From contig JAGOOZ010000002.1 of NCBI GenBank assembly GCA_017992215.1, positions 1 to 36,177 on the forward strand: a stretch of DNA of 36,177 nt, read 5' to 3'. Origin of the DNA: Minisyncoccota bacterium (lineage in GTDB: Bacteria; Patescibacteriota; Minisyncoccia; Phycocordibacterales; UBA9973). The notes under the pieces are model-generated. The model made no database searches. It was given only the letters and a program-made list of their open reading frames with translations, and had not been told where the DNA came from. Position numbers and translations under genes: made by a program. This document shows positions 4,078-36,177 of this stretch, in pieces; the first letter of the stretch is position 1; the number at the start of each line of letters is the position of its first letter.

Positions 4078-5175
4078 ATGAAACTAGAATGCTCAATTGA
4101 AAAAATAAGAAATGCACTTACTACCGTAGAGAGACTCACAGGTAAGAATCTTACACTTCCTGTATTAGGAAGTGTTCTTTGGGTTGCAACAGGTAAGACA
4201 CTTAAATTAAGAGCTACAAATCTTAGTGTAGGTATAGAAATAGATGTTGATGCAAAAATAGAAAAAGAAGGTGTTGTTGCTATTAAGGGTAATATTCTTC
4301 CTTCTCTTTTTGCTGTATTGTCTGGTGACTCAAAGGTTTCATTTGAACTTATTAATGATAATCTTTCTGTGAAAACAAAAACAAGTACAATACTCTTGAA
4401 GAGTATTTCTCATGAAGATTTTCCAACGATTCCAATTGTTTCAGGTGATCAGTGTGAAATTCCAGTAAAAAAGTTTATTGAAGGTCTCAAGGCTGTGTAT
4501 TATAGTGCTTCTCTTTCAGAGATAAAACCAGAGATAGGAAGTATTTATATTTATCCAGAGGATGATATGTTGGTATTTGTTGCCACAGATTCATTTCGAC
4601 TTGCTGAGAAAAAAATAAAAATTAAACAAAAACTTACATTTACTGGTATTCTTATTCCCCTTAAAAACACCGTTGAATTAATTAAAGTTTTTGATGATAG
4701 TACCGAGGATGTTGTTATTACACTTCAAAAAAATCAGATTTCATTTAAAACAAACACTATTTACTTTACCTCACGTGTTGTTGATGGTAATTTCCCAGAC
4801 TACAAACAAATCATTCCTAAAAAATCAACAACAGAAGCAGTTATTTTGAAACAAGATTTTATTTCATCTTTAAAGATATCAAATATTTTTACAGACAAAT
4901 TAAACCAAGTAACATTTACAATAAATCCTAGCGATAAGATTTTTGAAATAGAATCAAAAAATTCTGATATTGGAGAAAATACAACCTTTGTTTCAGGTTC
5001 ATTTACAGGAGAAGAGGTTGTTGCTCACTTTAATTATAAATATATTCTTGATTGTTTTAATTCAATTAGTGGTGATAGTCTTAAAATAGAATTAAATGGA
5101 AATAATAAACCAATGATTTTGCGAACAGTTGGGGATGTTTCATTTATGTATTTAGTAATGCCTATGAACAGGTAA
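4078..5175 (+). CDS. dnaN: DNA polymerase III beta sliding clamp
   Basis: 365 aa with the three-domain clamp length. Follows dnaA. C-terminal MPMR-type ending (LVMPMNR). Confidence 0.95.
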   Translation: MKLECSIEKIRNALTTVERLTGKNLTLPVLGSVLWVATGKTLKLRATNLSVGIEIDVDAKIEKEGVVAIKGNILPSLFAVLSGDSKVSFELINDNLSVKTKTSTILLKSISHEDFPTIPIVSGDQCEIPVKKFIEGLKAVYYSASLSEIKPEIGSIYIYPEDDMLVFVATDSFRLAEKKIKIKQKLTFTGILIPLKNTVELIKVFDDSTEDVVITLQKNQISFKTNTIYFTSRVVDGNFPDYKQIIPKKSTTEAVILKQDFISSLKISNIFTDKLNQVTFTINPSDKIFEIESKNSDIGENTTFVSGSFTGEEVVAHFNYKYILDCFNSISGDSLKIELNGNNKPMILRTVGDVSFMYLVMPMNR

Positions 5176-5447: not shown

Positions 5448-7961
5448 TTATAATTCTACACTAAAATAAAACTCTGATTCTTCAACTTCTCCATTTTCAT
5501 TATATGCAACAATTCGAATTGAGTTATTTTTCTGAGTAAGACCAAGGTTTGATACGGGCACTGTATAAGAGAACGGTGATTGTTTGAGTGAGGTACTATA
5601 TGAATTATTGATATAGATATCTATTTTTTGAATACGAGATGTTTGAGTTCTTGGTGAGATAGAAAACGCAAGGTTTTGATTTTTTGTGTATGGTGTTTCA
5701 CTTATTCCTTGTACATCAAAATACGGAAGTGTATCTCCTGTATGAATAGTGTCATATCGTGTTGGTTTATCAGCGAGACTTATTGTTTTATAGTTTTGCT
5801 TGTGTGTATTCCACCAAGACAAAACACCATACTCCCAGTTTTTAAATTGAGAATCTTTCTGTGGATTTGTAGGGCGTGGACCTTGTGGATTATTTTTATC
5901 TATCCAATATAAAATTGTATGCACATTTGTAATGGATATTTCTTTTCTTTTATTTTTTGGGGTAAATTCTGTTGCAAGATTTCCTGAAATTGAATCAATA
6001 GTAAAGGTATCTCCTCCTTGCCAGAAACCACGAAGAACAGGTGGAAGTGTTTCGTCTATTGGGTCAGGTGTATTAAAAGATTCAGAGGGTATACCCACAA
6101 GTGCTTCTTGTATTACTTGGTTCCAGATAGGACCAGCAAGCGCAGCACCACCTTTTTTCATTGGGGTATTATCATTGTTTCCAACCCAGACACCCACAGT
6201 GACATATGGAGTGTATCCTATCGTCCAGGCGTCTCTGTTGTTGTTCGTGGTACCTGTTTTTACAGCAACATCATGACCTGGAACAACGAGCGGTGAATTT
6301 GCCCCAAATGTTGGTGTTCGAGCTTTATTATCAGAAAGAATATCAGAAAGAATTCGAGTCGTATTTTCTTGTAATACCTGGTATGGTCGAGGTTCGTATG
6401 TTTCAAGAATAGTTCCTGTTGAATCCTTTATTTCAAGAATTGATTGGTGTGGATTCCGAATACCATTATTTGCAAAGACACTATATACAGATGTCATGTC
6501 GAGAAGTGTTGTTTCACCGCCTCCAATAACAAGAGAGAGTCCATATCTGTCTGGTTCTGTAAGTGTTGTAATACCGAGGTCATGTGCGAGTTTAATAGAA
6601 TCTTGTACCCCCACAAGATAGAGTAATTTTACGGCGATAATGTTGATAGACTGAGCAAGTCCATCTCGAAGTGTCATTGGACCACGAAATGCATTATCAT
6701 AATTGTCTGGCATATAACAATCTGCATTTTTATTTTCAGGTACACCAAGAGGGCTACATGAAGAATTAAATTCTGTTTTTACATCAAAAAGGGTTGTTTG
6801 TTCTGTGTACCCATCCTCAAATGCTCGAGCAAAGATAATAGGTTTAAATGATGACCCTGGTTGTCGTTGTGCTGTTGCTACGTTGAAGTTTCCATCAACT
6901 GTTTTGTCGAAATAGTTACGAGACCCAACCATAGATCTAATATGTCCTGTTTTAGGGTCAATAACAACAATTGCAGTGTTCTTGCCGTTCCATTCTTTTT
7001 CGTTTACTGTTGCTTTTTCAAGGGCAATAGCTTCTGTTTTTTTCTGGAGTTCATAATCAAGTGTTGTGATAACGGTGAGCCCACCAGCATCAAGTGTTTC
7101 TGGTCCGTATTTTTGTTCAAGGTATTCTTTTACAAAAAATACAAAATGAGGGGCCGCAATATGAAGAGGTGATGCAGGGAGAAATGTTACTGTTTCTTTT
7201 ACCGCACTGTCGTGTTCTTCTTGTGTAATAAATTTTAAATCAAGCATTCTTTTAAGTACGAGATTTTTTCTGTCATCAAGGCGCGCTTTGTTTTTACCGT
7301 ATGGTGAATAATACGTAGGTCCGTTTGGAATCGCTGCCATATATGCTGATTCTGCAAGTGTCATATCTTTCGGTTCTTTACCAAAGAATGCTTTTGATGC
7401 TTCAGCGATACCATAAATATTTCCACCATATGGAGCCTCATTTAGGTACAGAGCTAAAATATCATCCTTAGTCATTACTCGCTCAAGTTTTATTGCAAGA
7501 ATCCATTCTTTTATTTTACGAGTTAATGAGCGCTTGTTGGTGAGAAGTGTATTTTTGATAAGCTGTTGAGTAATCGTTGATCCACCTTGAACACGTCGTC
7601 CTGTAATTTTTGCCCATACCGTTGCACGAATAATAGAGGTAATACGAATACCTTTGTGTTGATAGAACTCAGAGTCTTCAATAGCAACGGTTGCATTTTT
7701 AATAGATACACCCATATCTTCATAGGGGATAATTGTGCGTTTGATATCTTGGTGTACATCATAAAGGAGTATTTTACCCGTATTGTCGTATATTTTTGTT
7801 GAGCTTTGAACTTTTCGTTCAGTAAATGATTTAAAATCAGGAAGTGTGAGTGTTGTAATCCAGATAACAAACACCCCTGCACAGATAATTCCAACCCCAA
7901 GAATAAGAAAAATCCAACTTTCTCGAGGGTGGTTTTTAAAATAGGAAATAAATTTATTCAT
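5448..7961 (-). CDS. bifunctional penicillin-binding protein 1A (glycosyltransferase plus transpeptidase)
   Basis: 837 aa with an N-terminal TM helix, a GT51 motif (EDSEFYQHKGI), transpeptidase SxxK (GSSFKP) and KTGTT. Carries a roughly 200-aa C-terminal extension of unknown fold. Confidence 0.9.
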   Translation of the reverse strand: MNKFISYFKNHPRESWIFLILGVGIICAGVFVIWITTLTLPDFKSFTERKVQSSTKIYDNTGKILLYDVHQDIKRTIIPYEDMGVSIKNATVAIEDSEFYQHKGIRITSIIRATVWAKITGRRVQGGSTITQQLIKNTLLTNKRSLTRKIKEWILAIKLERVMTKDDILALYLNEAPYGGNIYGIAEASKAFFGKEPKDMTLAESAYMAAIPNGPTYYSPYGKNKARLDDRKNLVLKRMLDLKFITQEEHDSAVKETVTFLPASPLHIAAPHFVFFVKEYLEQKYGPETLDAGGLTVITTLDYELQKKTEAIALEKATVNEKEWNGKNTAIVVIDPKTGHIRSMVGSRNYFDKTVDGNFNVATAQRQPGSSFKPIIFARAFEDGYTEQTTLFDVKTEFNSSCSPLGVPENKNADCYMPDNYDNAFRGPMTLRDGLAQSINIIAVKLLYLVGVQDSIKLAHDLGITTLTEPDRYGLSLVIGGGETTLLDMTSVYSVFANNGIRNPHQSILEIKDSTGTILETYEPRPYQVLQENTTRILSDILSDNKARTPTFGANSPLVVPGHDVAVKTGTTNNNRDAWTIGYTPYVTVGVWVGNNDNTPMKKGGAALAGPIWNQVIQEALVGIPSESFNTPDPIDETLPPVLRGFWQGGDTFTIDSISGNLATEFTPKNKRKEISITNVHTILYWIDKNNPQGPRPTNPQKDSQFKNWEYGVLSWWNTHKQNYKTISLADKPTRYDTIHTGDTLPYFDVQGISETPYTKNQNLAFSISPRTQTSRIQKIDIYINNSYSTSLKQSPFSYTVPVSNLGLTQKNNSIRIVAYNENGEVEESEFYFSVEL

Positions 7962-18943: not shown

Positions 18944-19432
18944 ATGGATACACACGAAAAGGTAAAAGCAGACTCATCATATGCAATACATATGGTCCTC
19001 TCTCATTCATACACAATGTTTATGCTCGCACTTGTTGCTGGGCTTGTTCTTCATCTTGTGTTTGAAATACCACTTTTTGTATCTGGGGCATATCAGTATC
19101 TCGGGGTGGTGTTGATTATTATAGGGACATATCTTGTCTGGTGGGCTCAATCAACAACAAGAAAAACAAAACAAGAAATGAGCCAAACACAGCCTTCTCG
19201 TGATTTTGCTCGTGGCCCATACAAGTACAGCCGTAATCCTACACACATTGGGCTCACACTCACAACGCTCGGTCTCGGACTTATCTTGAATTCTTTTTTT
19301 ATTTTTGTTGTGACGATTATTGCATCACTTATTTCGAAATATATTTTTATTAAAAAAGAAGAAGCACTTCTTGAGGAAAAATACGGCGATGAGTATCGTG
19401 AATACAAGAAGACAGTGAGTACATGGGTATGA
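18944..19432 (+). CDS. membrane methyltransferase of the isoprenylcysteine carboxyl / phospholipid methyltransferase-like family
   Basis: Polytopic protein. C-terminal region GPYKYSRNPTHIGL...EEALLEEKYGDEYREYKK matches the ICMT/PEMT-type signature. Start moved to the ATG at 18944 (the upstream part overlaps the polA end). Confidence 0.7.
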   Translation: MDTHEKVKADSSYAIHMVLSHSYTMFMLALVAGLVLHLVFEIPLFVSGAYQYLGVVLIIIGTYLVWWAQSTTRKTKQEMSQTQPSRDFARGPYKYSRNPTHIGLTLTTLGLGLILNSFFIFVVTIIASLISKYIFIKKEEALLEEKYGDEYREYKKTVSTWV

Positions 19433-19576
19433 TCCCGTTAGAGACCCTGCCTTTGCCGGCAGGCAGGCGCGGTCGTAGTAAAAAATACAATGGATGTCTT
19501 TAAAACAAAAGTAGAAATTATAAATAAACAAAACAGTGTTGCGTTACGGACCGCGACCTGTCTCTAACGGGATGAT
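19429..19576 (+). mobile_element. MITE-like inverted-repeat element, copy A (138 bp plus ATGAT duplications)
   Basis: Left: CCCGTTAGAGAC 19434-19445, CGCGGTC 19468-19474. Right: GACCGCG 19549-19555, GTCTCTAACGGG 19560-19571. Direct ATGAT at 19429-19433 and 19572-19576. The second copy is at 23107-23234. Confidence 0.6.
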
Positions 19577-22532: not shown

Positions 22533-23111
22533 TTATTTTCCTCCTAAAATTTTGAGTGCTTCTTTGATTCGTGCATTTGTTCCTTCGATAGAAGGGGGGA
22601 TTTGCTTGAGTGCATCACGAGCTTCGTTTTGTGAATAGCCGAGAGCTTTGAGGGCTTCGATGATATCACTTTCTTCTCGAAGCACACCTGGTGTGTGGCT
22701 ACCACCAGTATGTGCTTTTAATTTATCACGTAGTTCGAGAACTATTTTATCCGCTGTTTTTCTACCAATACCAGAAACCTTGTTGAGATAGCTTGTGTCA
22801 CCAGTTGCAATCGCTTTTTTGAGTGTATCAATTGAAGCGACAGCGAGAATCGAGAGGGCAGACTTGGGTCCAATACCAGAAACATCAAGGAGGAGTTCGA
22901 AGAATGATAATTCATCTATCGTTGCGAATCCATAGAGGTCGAGAGAGTTTTCGCGGACAGCCGTATATGTCCAAAGTGCGACCGTGTCGCCCATGCCATA
23001 TGCACCCACAGTATCAGTTGTAATAAATACTTTATATCCAACACCATTAACGTCAATAACGAAAAACTTGTCAGTCGTATGAATAATAGTGCCTTCGATT
23101 CGTGCAATCAT
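22533..23111 (-). CDS. ruvA: Holliday junction DNA helicase subunit RuvA
   Basis: MIARIEGTI... N-terminal OB domain, HhH motifs (VSGIGPKSA, VSGIGRKTA), and C-terminal domain III. Confidence 0.93.
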   Translation of the reverse strand: MIARIEGTIIHTTDKFFVIDVNGVGYKVFITTDTVGAYGMGDTVALWTYTAVRENSLDLYGFATIDELSFFELLLDVSGIGPKSALSILAVASIDTLKKAIATGDTSYLNKVSGIGRKTADKIVLELRDKLKAHTGGSHTPGVLREESDIIEALKALGYSQNEARDALKQIPPSIEGTNARIKEALKILGGK

Positions 23112-23234
23112 CCCGTTAGAGACAGGTCGCGGTCCATATGTAAGGAACCGTTTTGCTGTGTTGTGAAAATAAGTAAATAATTAAATGTATACCCGTATTT
23201 AGTAAACCGTGACCGCGGTCTCTAACGGGATCAT
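23107..23234 (-). mobile_element. MITE-like inverted-repeat element, copy B (118 bp plus ATGAT duplications, inverted relative to copy A)
   Basis: Plus strand: CCCGTTAGAGAC 23112-23123, AGGT, CGCGGTCC 23128-23135 ... GACCGCG 23211-23217, GTCTCTAACGGG 23218-23229. ATCAT at 23107-23111 and 23230-23234 (ATGAT on the minus strand). Confidence 0.6.
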
Positions 23235-23540
23235 GTGTATAGTATACTCGTTTTTTGATAATTTAGAGAGCGTTTACTTTTCTGATTTTTTCTGGTATTG
23301 TTACTAGGTTCTTATATGTCTGTGTCTCAGATTTGTAAGATTACTATCCCAGCCCCATAATTTGAAAGACATACGAGGGGTGAAGCGCTTAGCGAAAAAC
23401 TGGTTGGCCTATTCGGCCCCGCGCTTCAGATAGCAATACGTGTTCATTTTAATGTTTATCTATACTTATTATTAAATTAATGAAATTATGGAGCGGGATG
23501 ACAATTTTTATAGTCGTTCCACTCCTTAAAAATCAGTCAC

Positions 23541-24307: not shown

Positions 24308-24379
24308 GGTCCCGTCGTTCAATGGATAGGACGTAACTTTGCGGAAGTTATGATGCAGGTTCGATTCCTGCCGGGATCA
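24308..24379 (+). tRNA. tRNA-Arg (anticodon GCG)
   Basis: Hand-folded 72-nt cloverleaf: GGTCCCG/CGGGATC acceptor, GTTC/GGAC D-stem, anticodon stem TAACT/AGTTA with loop TTGCGGA, T-arm GCAGG-TTCGATT-CCTGC, discriminator A. CCA is not encoded. Confidence 0.85.
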
Positions 24380-24444
24380 CAGAGTCGAGTGCTAGTTCGA
24401 GCACTCGACAAGGGTCATCAAATACCTTTGTTATAAAGAACAAC

Positions 24445-24495: not shown

Positions 24496-25779
24496 TTACG
24501 CTTTAACTGTTATGATCTTATTTTTCAAAACTAGATCGTTTTTTATACAATCAAGAACCGATCGTTTTTCTAAAATTGTTCCGTCTTTCAAAACGAACTT
24601 CATGTAATTTCTGAGATCAACTTTCTGTATATCAGCTGGGTTGTCCTTTCCTAAAAACATCGCTTGAAGCTTTTTGAATTTCTTGATTTCAAGATTCAGC
24701 TTTTCATTAAGTTGTACTTCATTAAGGTCCAAAGTTCCTGCCATTTTCTGAAATTCTTTTAATAAGTCATCTTCGTTTATTGCAGGATTTGTGCATTTTC
24801 TATCTTTAGATTTAGTACATCTATAATAGACATGTCTATTTACTCCGCCATTTAGTAATTTCTTAAATTTCTCGTCTGCCGTAATACCTGATCCGCACAT
24901 TCCGCACTTCACCATTCGAGTAAACGCAAACTCTTTTCCATGAGTTTTTATAACCTGCGTTTTGATTGCTGATCGGCAATCATCAAAAAGTTCCTTGCTA
25001 ATTATTGGCGTATGCTTTCCGTCGTACCAGTTTCCACTGCCTTGTGGAAACTCAAATCGTCCGTAATAAAAGGTGTTGTTGATTATTTTAAATACATTTC
25101 CAAGACTTAGATAAAACCCTCTATGTGTTTTGAAATTCAGTTCATACCGTAACCATGAGTATACTCTCATTCCGCTCCACCGTTCGTATGCGATTTTCTC
25201 AAAAATCTGTTTAATTACTGGTGCTCGTTCGGGATCAATCTCTACTTCGCATTTCGCTAGTCTCTTGTTTGATTTCCTGTATCCAGTTGGCGGTTGTACT
25301 GGCCATAATCCCATTTCGCACCGTGCTCTCATTCCTCGCTTCACATTGATACTCTTGTTGTCATTCTCTAGTTTTGCTTGAGAGCATAAAATCATCAAGA
25401 GGAATTTATCACTTGGCGAATTAGTAAATGTTTGCCCGAATGTCTTGATTTGAGTTAACTTCTTTTGATCAATACGATCCACCAACTTTCCCAAATCTCC
25501 AGCATTTCTTGAAAGACGATCTGGTGCCCAGGTAATAATTGCGTTGAATATGCCGTCGTCTATGTCTTTTAGTATTTCCTCAAACACGGGTCGTTGACCT
25601 GACTCTTTTGCACTATGAGATTCACGACGGATCTCTACCACATTCAAACCTTCACGCTCTGCTATTTGGCTCATTTCCTTGACCTGGGAATCAATGGAAA
25701 GGGCTTGCTTTTCTTCGTCTTCGGTTGATTTGCGGGCGTATAAGCAATATTTAAGATTATCTTTTATTATTTCTGTCAT
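24496..25779 (-). CDS. large serine recombinase (resolvase/invertase catalytic domain, recombinase domain, zinc ribbon)
   Basis: N-terminus LYARKSTEDEEKQALSIDSQ (catalytic Ser context), DRLSRN motif, a central recombinase domain, and a Cys cluster (CGMCGSG...YYRCTKSKDRKC). Its 3' end lies 116 bp from tRNA-Arg. Confidence 0.9.
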   Translation of the reverse strand: MTEIIKDNLKYCLYARKSTEDEEKQALSIDSQVKEMSQIAEREGLNVVEIRRESHSAKESGQRPVFEEILKDIDDGIFNAIITWAPDRLSRNAGDLGKLVDRIDQKKLTQIKTFGQTFTNSPSDKFLLMILCSQAKLENDNKSINVKRGMRARCEMGLWPVQPPTGYRKSNKRLAKCEVEIDPERAPVIKQIFEKIAYERWSGMRVYSWLRYELNFKTHRGFYLSLGNVFKIINNTFYYGRFEFPQGSGNWYDGKHTPIISKELFDDCRSAIKTQVIKTHGKEFAFTRMVKCGMCGSGITADEKFKKLLNGGVNRHVYYRCTKSKDRKCTNPAINEDDLLKEFQKMAGTLDLNEVQLNEKLNLEIKKFKKLQAMFLGKDNPADIQKVDLRNYMKFVLKDGTILEKRSVLDCIKNDLVLKNKIITVKA

Positions 25780-27442: not shown

Positions 27443-27512
27443 GAAAATGCATGAAAAAGCCTTGTGGAGTAAGGAACCCCACGGTCGCACCACGACTAGG
27501 CTCACCCGTTAG

Positions 27513-27548
27513 AAAAAGAGCTGTCTTTGATAGACAGCCTTTTTCTTT
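27513..27548. terminator. bidirectional terminator-like hairpin inside the structured region
   Basis: AAAAAGA-GCTGTCT, loop TTGAT, AGACAGC-CTTTTTCTTT. Confidence 0.6.
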
Positions 27549-27752
27549 GGGTGATCCCGAAGAAGACATCTGCATGTCTTCTGTGCAGGAATCGAAAACC
27601 TTTTCCGTGTGAGTGTACTCACGAACGGAAAAGGTGTACTGATCCTGTGATTGAGTACAATCACCTACTGGGTAAGGGTCGATATGCGTACTCGCGGTCC
27701 TACCGTTGGTGTTGTTTTGATTACAAAACCACCAATCACGCGCCGTTGGCGA

Positions 27753-36055: not shown

Positions 36056-36177
36056 GGAGGCGGTGAGACCGCGAGTACGCGTTTCGAATCTTACAGATTC
36101 TGTACACCTTTCGTATTTCTTCGAATGATTACATTCTCATAAATATACTCAAGGTTTTCGAATCTCACACAGAAAGC
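36056..36177 (+). repeat. structured module, copy W (runs off the window end)
   Basis: CGGTGAGACCGCGAGTACGC (36061-36080) resembles the minus strand of 27685-27704. CTGTACACCTTTCG is at 36100-36113. AAGGTTTTCGAATCTCACACAGAA at 36151-36174 is collinear with copies L and M. Confidence 0.5.

Follow-up and report, generated by a model that had tools for sequence, protein, structure and literature searches.

The window, by which we mean the whole 36,177-nt stretch of Minisyncoccota DNA analysed here, carries ruvA on its minus strand. A hairpin element, copy B, lies directly before the gene and is bordered by ATGAT on both sides. The features at this locus are as follows.

22533..23111, minus strand: ruvA (Pfam RuvA_N, HHH_5 and RuvA_C; conserved synteny)
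23107..23111, minus strand: inner ATGAT, the probable rebuilt ruvA start (sequence, ruvA ORF, alignment with strain L161)
23112..23134, minus strand: 3' arm of copy B, GACCGCG-ACCT-GTCTCTAACGGG (conserved columns and pairing)
23209..23229, minus strand: 5' arm of copy B, CCCGTTAGAGAC-CGCGGTCAC in minus-strand reading (pairs with the 3' arm)
23112..23229, minus strand: copy B, a 118-nt non-autonomous hairpin element (covariance model; absent from strain L161)
23230..23234, minus strand: outer ATGAT, the probable original ruvA start in its native promoter context (empty site of strain L161)
23241..23246, minus strand: TATACT, a -10-like box of a leaderless-type promoter (orthologue boxes at equal spacing)

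Read on the minus strand, the locus is TATACT-ATACAC-ATGAT-[CCCGTTAGAGACCGCGGTCAC ... GGACCGCGACCTGTCTCTAACGGG]-ATGAT-TGCACG, with copy B in brackets. TATACT lies 6 nt 5' of the outer ATGAT, which now acts as a decoy start opening an ORF of 12 codons. The inner ATGAT supplies the ruvA ATG (23111-23109) and the first two bases of codon 2. The unpaired ACCT bulge of the 3' arm appears as AGGT on the plus strand (23124-23127). Copy B has a minimum free energy of -42 kcal/mol (z = -3.9), and a covariance model of the family scored it at 83.5 bits on the minus strand versus 47.8 on the plus strand.

We compared the locus with those of related strains. Strain L161, whose upstream flank is 98% identical over 572 nt, has an empty ruvA site, TATACTATACAC-ATGAT-TGCACG, or, written from the box, TATACT-N6-ATGATTGC. 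The gap between L161 and the window is exactly 118 nt plus one ATGAT, and the two BLAST alignments of the sequences overlap by exactly ATGAT. Since the empty site occurs in a strain this close, the insertion of copy B is recent and the duplication is real. The proposal in the earlier note that copy B is a mobile element with a target duplication on the initiation codon agrees with this comparison, ATGAT being present once in L161 and twice in the window. Gene order (S20, ruvA-fpg) is kept among the orthologous loci, whose sites are likewise empty and read TATAAT-N6-ATG. Three orthologues (L145, L151 and L149) have TATAAT at the same spacing to ATGATTGC as in the window, and a fourth (L147) has TATTAT. 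These orthologues indicate that ruvA was probably leaderless before the insertion, which upholds the view that a near-leaderless promoter now stands about 123 nt from the ATG.

A second element, copy A, precedes holA, whose homologues carry the JGI name DNA polymerase III delta subunit.

19429..19433, plus strand: outer ATGAT, the probable original holA start (empty sites of L152 and L153)
19434..19571, plus strand: copy A, a 138-nt member of the family of copy B (covariance model, arm match)
19572..19576, plus strand: inner ATGAT, the probable rebuilt holA start (sequence, ORF)

The 5' arm of copy A carries an additional 22-nt GC hairpin (19446-19467); its minimum free energy is -65 kcal/mol (z = -6.9) and its covariance-model score is 43 bits on the plus strand. 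The outer ATGAT overlaps the TGA stop (19430-19432) of an upstream PEMT-like gene. The empty holA sites of two relatives (L152 and L153) read TGGGTATGAT(T/A)TAT, so an insertion at holA, also claimed earlier, is borne out, and the holA start apparently overlapped the upstream stop codon (ATGA) before it. A relative with a 96%-identical HolA has another core at the holA site. The sequence agrees with the reported shared termini, different cores, ATGAT flanks and gene-side ATGAT forming the ruvA and holA starts; the cores of A and B cannot be aligned. The two copies are opposite in the genome, as had been stated, but identical in orientation relative to their downstream genes.

Chance is excluded for this pair, because a 23-nt arm pattern had 2 matches in the window against 0.00 expected from shuffles and because the covariance model, built from other genomes, found only copies A and B (next-best match 9.9 bits, E = 0.84). 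Two further links suggested earlier fared worse. The tRNA-Arg 3' end (CGGGATCA) and the CGCGGTC boxes at 27693 and 36067 each had 3 matches outside the elements, against 0.6 and about 1 expected respectively, which is not clearly above chance. We rejected them as relatives of the element, the surrounding sequence being unrelated.

The family comprises more than 119 loci in genomes, almost all of them from Patescibacteria and spread over many lineages of that group, and 22 more in metagenomes. Its consensus reads Y-CCCGTTAGAGAC-CGCGGTC, followed by roughly 65 nt of AT-rich core and then by GACCGCG-ACCT-GTCTCTAACGGG-R. Elements are 106-138 nt long and have no transposase ORF. The arms (12 + 7 bp) have columns more than 90% conserved among 84 copies, with 97.3% of arm cells paired; the ACCT bulge, likewise conserved above 90%, invariably lies on the gene side. 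The arms are identical between very distant lineages, which suggests that the enzyme is conserved or that the element has spread horizontally within Patescibacteria, while the cores drift, cannot be aligned across the family and are rich in stop codons. No viral contig matched the element (0 matches), and carriage by phage was rejected.

Mobility is evident from several other observations. Cores at least 85% identical were found at different genes, tandem copies exist, and in one nested copy CCTG is duplicated around the insert. We conclude, with a probability of roughly 0.8, that copy B is a recent insertion of a Patescibacteria-wide, non-autonomous, MITE-like transposon family of about 115 bp. 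A stable, conserved hairpin immediately 5' of a start codon might also be an immobile, vertically inherited leader RNA of ruvA and holA (a riboswitch, thermometer or attenuator). This reading is refuted by the empty sites, presence and absence differing between 98%-identical strains, and we give it hardly any weight: the cores cannot be aligned, tandem and nested copies occur, the downstream genes belong to 112 unrelated families, and neither copy A nor copy B matched a covariance model of Rfam 15 at the gathering threshold or at E up to 5.

We determined the extent of the duplication from the flanks. Among 83 copies, the two flanks are the same at position 1 in 66, at positions 2 and 3 in 83 each, at position 4 in 82, at position 5 in 73 and at position 6 in 21. 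The earlier note gave the flank as ATGAT; this holds for the sub-family of the window, but the family-wide flank is ATG-R-A plus T or C, and the duplicated part is TGNN. The first base of the right-hand codon co-varies with the final left-flank base (T with A, C with G) and not with the left-hand codon; the pair is U-A in 66 copies, C-G in 16 and mismatched in 2 (Fisher p = 4e-15). The duplication as read varies in length, with ATGA+T, ATGNN+T and ATGGAG+T all present, and the ATGAT of the window's sub-family is compatible with a duplication of 5, 4 or 3 bases. The flank statistics and the one unambiguous nested insertion suggest a 4-bp duplication on integration, TGNN, most often TGAA or TGGA; in the window's sub-family the duplicated bases are probably TGAT or TGA. 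The rebuilt start codon would then consist of the element's terminal purine and the duplicated TG, and the original start codon would remain upstream, in its native context, as a decoy.

A census of copies relative to start codons, proposed in the earlier note, was made with a profile HMM that contained no flank sequence. Full-length copies abutted the start codon of an ORF of at least 60 aa in 94 of 114 cases (76 of 91 in another count), and the share at the start codon of a real gene is about 82-90%. Of the ATGRA sites that lie outside long ORFs, only 19% serve as start codons (p = 2e-48). Orientation relative to the downstream gene was 76:2. The 74 downstream proteins match 112 Pfam families, which does not bear out a preference for replication or repair genes; essential genes (ftsZ, lepA, ribosomal protein genes) are among those behind copies.

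On the question whether integration itself prefers gene starts in one orientation, we stand close to even odds, leaning slightly towards yes. A weaker but serious contender is promiscuous insertion at T-N-N-A-like sites in either orientation, with persistence only of those copies that rebuild a start. Copies on start codons would break no gene and so escape the deletion bias of small genomes, and in-frame, stop-free 48-nt versions within genes would be kept likewise. Such 48-nt relatives do occur: they lie within long ORFs, keep the frame and have TCAA or TCCA duplicated, which shows that related elements also land elsewhere than on start codons. For the nested copy the target was CCTG, with no start codon; two reverse copies sit at start codons; and about 9 copies lie away from recognisable ORF starts. 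The census is also biased to intact arms, its loci having been found through the exact arm pattern, so decayed intergenic copies would be under-counted. Survival alone must nevertheless account for 82% of copies at starts when non-ORF sites outnumber start-codon sites by 4:1 or more, even if the motif is taken as the five bases ATGRA, and the 76:2 orientation demands a separate cost of the reverse orientation. Furthermore, the youngest copies, namely the polymorphic ruvA insertion and clusters with near-identical cores at different genes, are likewise all at start codons.

We examined the sequence context of the copies for expression signals. A -10 box lies 5-9 nt before the outer ATG in 25 of 87 copies; in 37 of 87 the upstream ORF has its end within 30 nt, 12 of these being ATGA overlaps. 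Hardly any copy has an SD-like motif (2/90), SD-like 4-mers are also very rare before the outer ATG, and no SD sequence supplied by the element was seen. In these bacteria initiation is largely SD-less and often leaderless. The earlier note had raised the possibility of an outward promoter in the core. A promoter scan found no sigma-70-like site inside copy A or copy B, and no terminator-like site was found in either, so an internal or outward promoter or terminator was rejected. The only reading frame of the element is the short ORF from the outer ATG (median 17 codons), which stops 50-90 nt before the real start, in frames of 33:25:23. Given this early stop and unconserved frame, MIRU-like translational coupling and read-through were rejected. 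RuvA homologues of 224-233 aa were considered as products of read-through across an in-frame element; the one examined (L149) has an upstream in-frame ATG and no element.

We propose that expression survives by loop-out. In the mRNA, the arms would pair as a 12 + 7 bp stem, lengthened by flank bases, and the stem would loop out about 115 nt and bring the rebuilt AUG to the helix base. The AUG would then adjoin the original start signals, that is, the 5' end of the leaderless transcript for ruvA and the upstream stop for holA. With the rebuilt AUG beside its original signals, the gene would stay expressed and the insertion would be nearly neutral. Positions +1 and +2 of the rebuilt start codon take part in the closing pairs of the stem. 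G-U versus A-C mismatches in the stems number 36:21 (p = 0.06), which is no more than a trend towards selection at the RNA level.

That the start codon's first two bases close the stem also suits a host-beneficial control element, in which the hairpin regulates or stabilises the mRNA and mobility merely supplies copies. It could be a 5'-terminal stem protecting leaderless transcripts, an RNase III site or a translational gate. Correia elements of Neisseria, hairpins that are co-transcribed and then processed, offer a precedent. Conservation of the arms and ACCT bulge above 90% over distant lineages, while cores drift, exceeds the strict need of a selfish element and could point to a host function, and copies precede essential genes. 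We nevertheless regard this reading as improbable, as close strains and orthologues do without the element at ruvA and holA, the downstream genes share no common function, copies lacking an arm (L017 and L072) still stand before intact genes, and promoter- or terminator-like sites were not found in the window copies.

A stronger version of the mobile-element reading is active homing to translation starts in one orientation, with ribosomes crossing or bypassing a hairpin of about -40 kcal/mol to reach the rebuilt AUG. The machinery might recognise melted DNA at leaderless promoters or coupled stop/start junctions, or use an RNA-dependent step, and ribosomes might start from the decoy AUG or the 5' end. 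We hold this version as a tentative and rather doubtful one. Were homing and shunt or loop-out initiation true, this would be the first mobile element that homes to start codons and a natural prokaryotic case of such initiation, and it would offer a probe of SD-independent, leaderless initiation in Patescibacteria.

Patescibacteria are tiny and uncultured and have some of the smallest known bacterial genomes; genetic tools have, however, been reported for a Saccharibacterium that can be cultivated (PMC10633639). In the MITE-like reading, mobile DNA in these very small genomes would use the start codon as a safe landing place and repair it on arrival, with landings before essential genes (ftsZ, lepA, ribosomal protein genes, ruvA, holA). 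Translation there would be implied to tolerate, or even exploit, a stable 115-nt hairpin between the native start signals and the AUG, and since filled and empty alleles exist side by side in nature, translation past the hairpin is directly testable; sample SRR26424636 carries the empty site. In practice, the decoy start codon can mislead gene callers, and the element ends break short-read assemblies.

We looked for the enzyme that moves the element. In a limited search of about 140 loci, each spanning at most about 15 kb, no transposase recurred near copies and no distant pair of ends enclosed an ORF; an autonomous parent among these loci was rejected. Y1-transposase-like genes do occur in 4 loci. 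Together with the strict orientation, a hairpin doublet of REPIN-like size and core sub-families that appear to keep one flank type, they would suit a single-strand HUH/Y1 element of REPIN/RAYT or IS200/IS605 type that inserts next to a tetranucleotide and itself carries the right-hand TGNN. This reading is weakened by the demonstrated duplication, the nested insertion being a true 4-bp duplication of host sequence and ATGAT occurring once in the empty and twice in the filled allele. In addition, the Y1-like genes (L029, L035, L130) are bordered by their own hairpins, unlike the element, and we rejected the link to a RAYT-like transposase. A sub-terminal hairpin is absent at both ends, as is a GTAG or CGTC tag. 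We consider the HUH/Y1 reading very unlikely.

Several known systems resemble the element in part. REPIN/RAYT and IS200/IS605-derived palindromes share a hairpin doublet of about 100 nt and orientation-specific placement, whereas our element has a real duplication and no conserved GTAG/CGTC tag. Membership in REPIN/RAYT, where no target is duplicated and the RAYT gene is bordered by the same tagged REPs, was rejected on the duplication and on the different hairpins flanking the Y1-like genes; membership among the IS200/IS605-derived palindromes, whose ends each form a sub-terminal hairpin and which insert 3' of a fixed tetra- or pentanucleotide with no duplication, was rejected on the mutual pairing of the element's two ends and the duplication of host sequence. 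An integron attC site was excluded by its reversed polarity (5'-GTTAGAG ... CTCTAAC-3' in the element versus 5'-RYYYAAC ... GTTRRRY-3').

The genes 38 and 25 of T4, the 35S leader shunt of cauliflower mosaic virus (CaMV) and the bypass in T4 gene 60 are cases in which a stable hairpin joins an initiation signal to a distant start codon or the ribosome passes over it. The likeness would lie in the proposed working only and not in family: they are single fixed leaders, whereas the element is mobile.

Rickettsia palindromic elements (RPEs) are tolerated where the gene is not destroyed, in frame inside ORFs. The 48-nt relatives behave likewise, but the full-length element is found at gene starts and not within genes, and its core is stop-rich. 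RPEs are among the palindromic mobile repeats described in PMC3184786. The same source describes the MIRUs of Mycobacterium as small intra-operon repeats with ends overlapping stop and start codons and with tetranucleotide direct repeats. Copy A likewise sits in an ATGA stop/start junction. MIRUs carry small ORFs that overlap the stop and start codons of their neighbours, which would permit translational coupling; in contrast, the outer-ATG ORF of the element ends variably in the core and its frame is unconserved.

In the Neisseria repeat REP2, the repeat's own ATG is the start of many unrelated downstream ORFs (PMC3184786), as the repeat-associated ATG is here. REP2 carries a promoter and a ribosome-binding site, whereas the element contributes a single base, the first of the codon, and has no recognisable promoter or SD. 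The element has a target duplication and a whole-element hairpin, neither of which is described for REP2 in PMC3184786.

The closest comparison is with bacterial MITEs, defined with examples that include Correia/NEMIS of Neisseria in PMC3184786. Of the features that define MITEs, the element shows small size (less than about 400 bp) with no transposase ORF, conserved terminal inverted repeats, target duplication seen through empty and filled sites (L161, the holA sites, the nested CCTG), and many copies dispersed over the genomes, related ones occupying different loci. Neither an insertion sequence nor a transposase whose ends match, as expected of a parent, was found in about 140 loci. Like MITEs and Correia/NEMIS, it is about 100-150 bp long, is bounded by terminal inverted repeats, lacks an ORF and occurs in many copies, and it has a short target duplication with empty and filled sites in relatives; it would likewise fold into a long RNA hairpin transcribed together with the adjacent gene. 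Membership in Correia/NEMIS (26-bp terminal repeats, TA duplication) was rejected, since the arms differ, the sequence is unrelated and the duplicated bases are TGNN. Apart from its host range, Patescibacteria, and the parent not found, the element differs from both groups in that it sits on the start codon, rebuilds it and has one orientation. Our literature search found no paper with the terminal 12-mers or with a bacterial repeat that duplicates a start codon. As far as is known, the probable rebuilding of a start codon at an element's own end is new among described bacterial mobile elements.

Two hairpin elements with conserved inverted ends (arms) and a variable core lie in the window, one at the start of ruvA and the other at the start of holA. 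On the minus strand, the ruvA region reads TATACT-ATACAC-ATGAT-[118 nt]-ATGAT-TGCACGAATC. The features are as follows.

23112-23229, minus strand: copy B, 118 nt, first bases CCCGTTAGAGACCGCGGTCAC, last bases GGACCGCGACCTGTCTCTAACGGG
23111-23107, minus strand: inner ATGAT of copy B, opening a 192-aa ORF with RuvA_N, HHH_5 and RuvA_C domains
19434-19571, plus strand: copy A, 138 nt, with the same ends as copy B

Copy A follows the TGA stop of a PEMT-like gene and precedes the ATG of a 215-aa ORF, the homologues of which are named DNA polymerase III delta subunit by JGI. Two instances of the 23-nt arm pattern are present in the window vs. 0.00 expected. In addition, a covariance model trained on copies from other genomes matched only these two sites in the window (83.5 and 43 bits), and the next best match scored 9.9 bits (E = 0.84). 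The two copies align in the arms only and are oriented alike relative to their own genes, with the arm bearing the unpaired ACCT bulge on the gene side. Both inverted-repeat elements are real. The 5' arm of copy A also contains an extra 22-nt GC-rich mini hairpin (CCTGCCTTTGCCGGCAGGCAGG, window 19446-19467) exactly facing the ACCT bulge, and two loci from other genomes (L036 and L071) have inserts at the matching position.

We compared these sites with their counterparts elsewhere. L161, a Logan contig from a different sample, encodes an S20 protein identical to that of the window and shares 98% identity across 572 nt of the upstream flank. It lacks the element and reads TATACTATACAC-ATGAT-TGCACGAATCG, leading directly into ruvA. 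The two BLAST alignments between L161 and the window share exactly ATGAT, and the window has 118 additional bases in between. Copy B is a recent insertion. Farther ruvA orthologues (RuvA 76-81% identical, S20 | ruvA-fpg synteny kept) are also without the element and read TATAAT (or TATTAT)-N6-ATGATTGC. Because L161 and these orthologues place a -10-like box N6 before the start, ruvA was originally leaderless or near-leaderless, which bears out what the earlier note had supposed. The empty holA site, TGGGTATGAT(T/A)TAT, was found in two orthologous loci, where the start overlaps the stop of the PEMT-like gene in the classical ATGA manner. In L154/L155:1076-1200 (HolA 96% identical; window counterpart 19429-19576), the holA start is occupied by a 118-nt copy whose core is of the B type and unrelated to that of the 138-nt copy A. 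These differing cores at one site suggest turnover, by replacement, conversion or independent re-insertion.

In the window, S20 and ruvA are separated by a spacer of 429 nt, vs. 54-143 nt in relatives. Short conserved blocks (GAGACAC.GAC, TAGTAACA and GAAAAGTAAA) are shared between window 23250-23330 and the regions upstream of ruvA in L145 and L151; the remaining spacer, including a GC-rich segment at ~23350-23430, lies outside the blocks common to relatives. A tRNA-Arg(GCG) at 24308-24380 is followed by a large serine recombinase gene at 24496-25779 (Resolvase, Recombinase and Zn_ribbon_recom domains). Both are absent from the orthologous S20-ruvA neighbourhoods L145, L147 and L151 and therefore may be an integrated element, of which the inverted repeat 27672-27705 / 36061-36094 may or may not be part. 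The GC-rich stretch at 27450-27545, with a terminator-like hairpin (agagctgtctttgatagacagcctttttc) at its end, gave no ORF and no Rfam match and may represent the 3' terminus of an unclassified small RNA.

To describe the family, genomes were scanned, one per species, with the pattern CCCGTTAGAGAC-N(0-25)-CGCGGTC. At least 119 loci matched. Among the matches listed, nearly all were Patescibacteria (Saccharibacteria, Paceibacterota, Kaiser-, Nomura-, Wolfe-, Sung-, Taylor-, Yonath-, Azam- and Zambryskii-bacteria), and the few outside were partnerless single arms, in about the number expected by chance. Metagenomes yielded 22 further loci with the window-type arm, and the viral contigs scanned yielded no match. 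Both arms and the ACCT bulge of the 3' arm were more than 90% conserved in 84 distinct copies, and the arms paired in 97.3% of cells; the core (~65 nt) is AT-rich and mostly unalignable. The predicted RNA hairpins reached -42 kcal/mol for copy B (z = -3.9 vs. shuffled controls) and -65 kcal/mol for copy A (z = -6.9). Logan short-read contigs from several samples (L002:1, L003:1 and the ends of L158 and L162) begin precisely with the element's first C or break off 25 nt inside it. The repeat thus breaks assemblies, which implies that those genomes hold further copies sharing this 5' arm.

We then examined the flanks. The usual left flank is ATG-N-N-T (or -C) and the right flank (A/G)TG-N-N; the two flanks match at positions 1-6 in 66, 83, 83, 82, 73 and 21 of 83 copies. 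What the right-hand base tracks at position 1 is the last left-flank base (T with A, C with G) and not the left-hand codon. In nine copies, with C, a left-hand ATG is matched by a right-hand GTG; in five, with T, GTG stands on the left and ATG on the right; and in one, TTG is on the left and ATG on the right. The flank pair is U-A in 66 copies, C-G in 16 and mismatched in two (p = 4e-15). In three composite loci, a related mini hairpin interrupts the ACCT bulge, giving GACCTG[C...G]CCTGTCTC in place of the GACCTGTCTC of intact arms. This insertion duplicates four host bases (CCTG), and the inserted unit has a terminal C and G. The composites settle the duplication length at 4 bp. Taken with the flank statistics, the simplest model is therefore a Y-CCCG...CGGG-R element duplicating 4 bp. 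At genes, the duplicated bases would be bases 2-5, TGNN (position 4, 67% A or 24% G; position 5, 81% A). The native first base would remain on the left, and the working start codon would open with the last purine of the element. As read, the repeat varies in length (ATGA+T, ATGNN+T, ATGGAG+T). In the window sub-family (ruvA, holA and a third gene in L068, L129 and L130), it is always ATGAT and the boundaries of the duplication are ambiguous.

Among the matches listed, 76 of 91 orientable copies adjoin an ATG or GTG opening an ORF of at least 60 codons. A second census used a profile HMM without any flank sequence, and 94 of 114 full-length copies abutted the start of such an ORF. The reading of the earlier note, a mobile element on start codons, is supported by this census and by the empty sites, and extends beyond the window. 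The 20 off-start copies comprised upstream members of tandem arrays (5), copies preceding 32-49-codon ORFs (4, one ORF resembling ribosomal protein L36), one located at the end of a contig, one reverse-oriented copy on a start codon and about nine without a recognisable ORF start. The genes themselves are diverse: 74 downstream proteins matched 112 Pfam families (FtsZ, LepA, tRNA synthetase, MurJ and pyrophosphatase among them), none in more than four proteins, and ribosomal protein genes, judged by eye, also occurred.

We put the probability that insertion is targeted to start codons at about 0.5. A survival filter alone, by which placement would reflect only the copies that persist, is somewhat less likely. 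Non-start ATGRA sites exceed start ones in the same loci (792 outside long ORFs vs. 186 start codons, the "intergenic" class being crude and taking in small genes), yet copies are mostly on starts: 82% vs. a background of 19% (p = 2e-48, with small genes again in the background class). A pure filter is also opposed by the 76:2 bias in orientation relative to genes and by the youngest copies, namely the polymorphic ruvA insertion and clusters of at least 85%-identical cores at different genes, all of which are on start codons. In its favour, the census favours intact arms, the target of the nested copy is CCTG, and 48-nt relatives flanked by TCAA- or TCCA-type duplications lie in frame within long ORFs (up to 596 aa). 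These mini hairpins have the 12-nt ends of the family around a 24-nt GC-rich middle.

L006:7078-7125, L104:631-678, L122:6066-6113, L118:1357-1404 and L074:3705-3752: 48-nt mini hairpins, also found in L024, L101, L106 and L109

The sum 48 + 2 + 4 = 54 nt equals 18 stop-free codons, a likeness to the Rickettsia palindromic elements.

Two further arrangements were seen. In composites (L051:2438-2724, L052:2671-2857 and about 4841-5026, L075:582-769), the second hairpin, CCCCGTTAGAAGC...GCTTCTAACGGGG, is nested in the 3'-arm ACCT bulge; since the composite is present at four different genes, it seems to move as a unit. Tandem copies precede one gene in L124:1623-1865, L123:400-639, L125:167-409, L140:3222-3458, L069:about 2190-2366, L005, L013 and L065, with a 6-nt spacer, ATGAAT or its reverse complement ATTCAT. 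Simple re-insertion would not readily account for the ATTCAT type.

In the loci examined, no pair of element ends encloses an ORF and no transposase recurs near copies. Y1/HUH transposase-like genes with NHFHL and Y..H.NP motifs are present in L130 (minus strand, about 7138-7822), L035, L029 and L090, bracketed by short hairpins of their own, e.g. CCCAAGGAGAGTCCTTGGG. These four genes were rejected as the enzyme of the element, their flanking hairpins being different; they are a separate REP/RAYT-like system within the same genomes.

How such genes are translated was considered from their start context. A TATAAT-like box lies 5-9 nt upstream of the outer, original ATG in 25 of 87 classifiable copies (leaderless type, as ruvA). 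In 37, an upstream same-strand ORF ends within 30 nt, and 12 of these are ATGA overlaps of the holA kind. Only 2 of 90 copies had an SD-like motif at the usual distance. Among 493 long control ORFs from ~100 Patescibacteria loci (L004-L144), ~8% had an SD-like 4-mer 4-11 nt upstream, and in ~17% the ATG was preceded, at 5-9 nt, by a TATAAT-like box; these proportions suggest that leaderless and SD-independent initiation is widespread in such genomes. According to a published survey, just 48% of Parcubacteria 16S rRNA genes carry the anti-SD motif (PMC9297842). In both contexts, the outer codon is where the start-selecting signal (transcript 5' end or terminating ribosome) lies. The short ORF opened by the outer ATG stops at varying points of the core, and its frame is not conserved; therefore, stop/start coupling and read-through were rejected. 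The predicted hairpin takes in left-flank bases -2 and -1 and rebuilt-codon bases +1 and +2, placing the rebuilt AUG at the helix base, beside the outer AUG. Our working idea is that the folded element would be looped out and the rebuilt AUG used. Direct SD-independent initiation at an accessible AUG, cleavage of the stem, or true bypass of the hairpin by the ribosome are other possible ways in which translation may cope. In the stem, G-U mismatches exceeded A-C ones 36:21 (p = 0.06), an excess that no more than hints at selection on the sense RNA.

Finally, we compared the element with known systems. Correia element, REPIN, IS200/IS605 derivative, attC site and Rfam family were each rejected as its identity. 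By the operational definition (PMC3184786), it is a MITE in everything but a known parent element. None of the papers searched reported the terminal 12-mers or repeats duplicating start codons; the element is a MITE whose relation to start codons has no known precedent. The closest precedents for placement are the Neisseria REP2 repeats, which provide downstream ORFs with their ATG, and the MIRUs, whose ends overlap stop and start codons within operons (PMC3184786). Neither, as described, is a transposon of hairpin form with a duplicated and rebuilt start codon.
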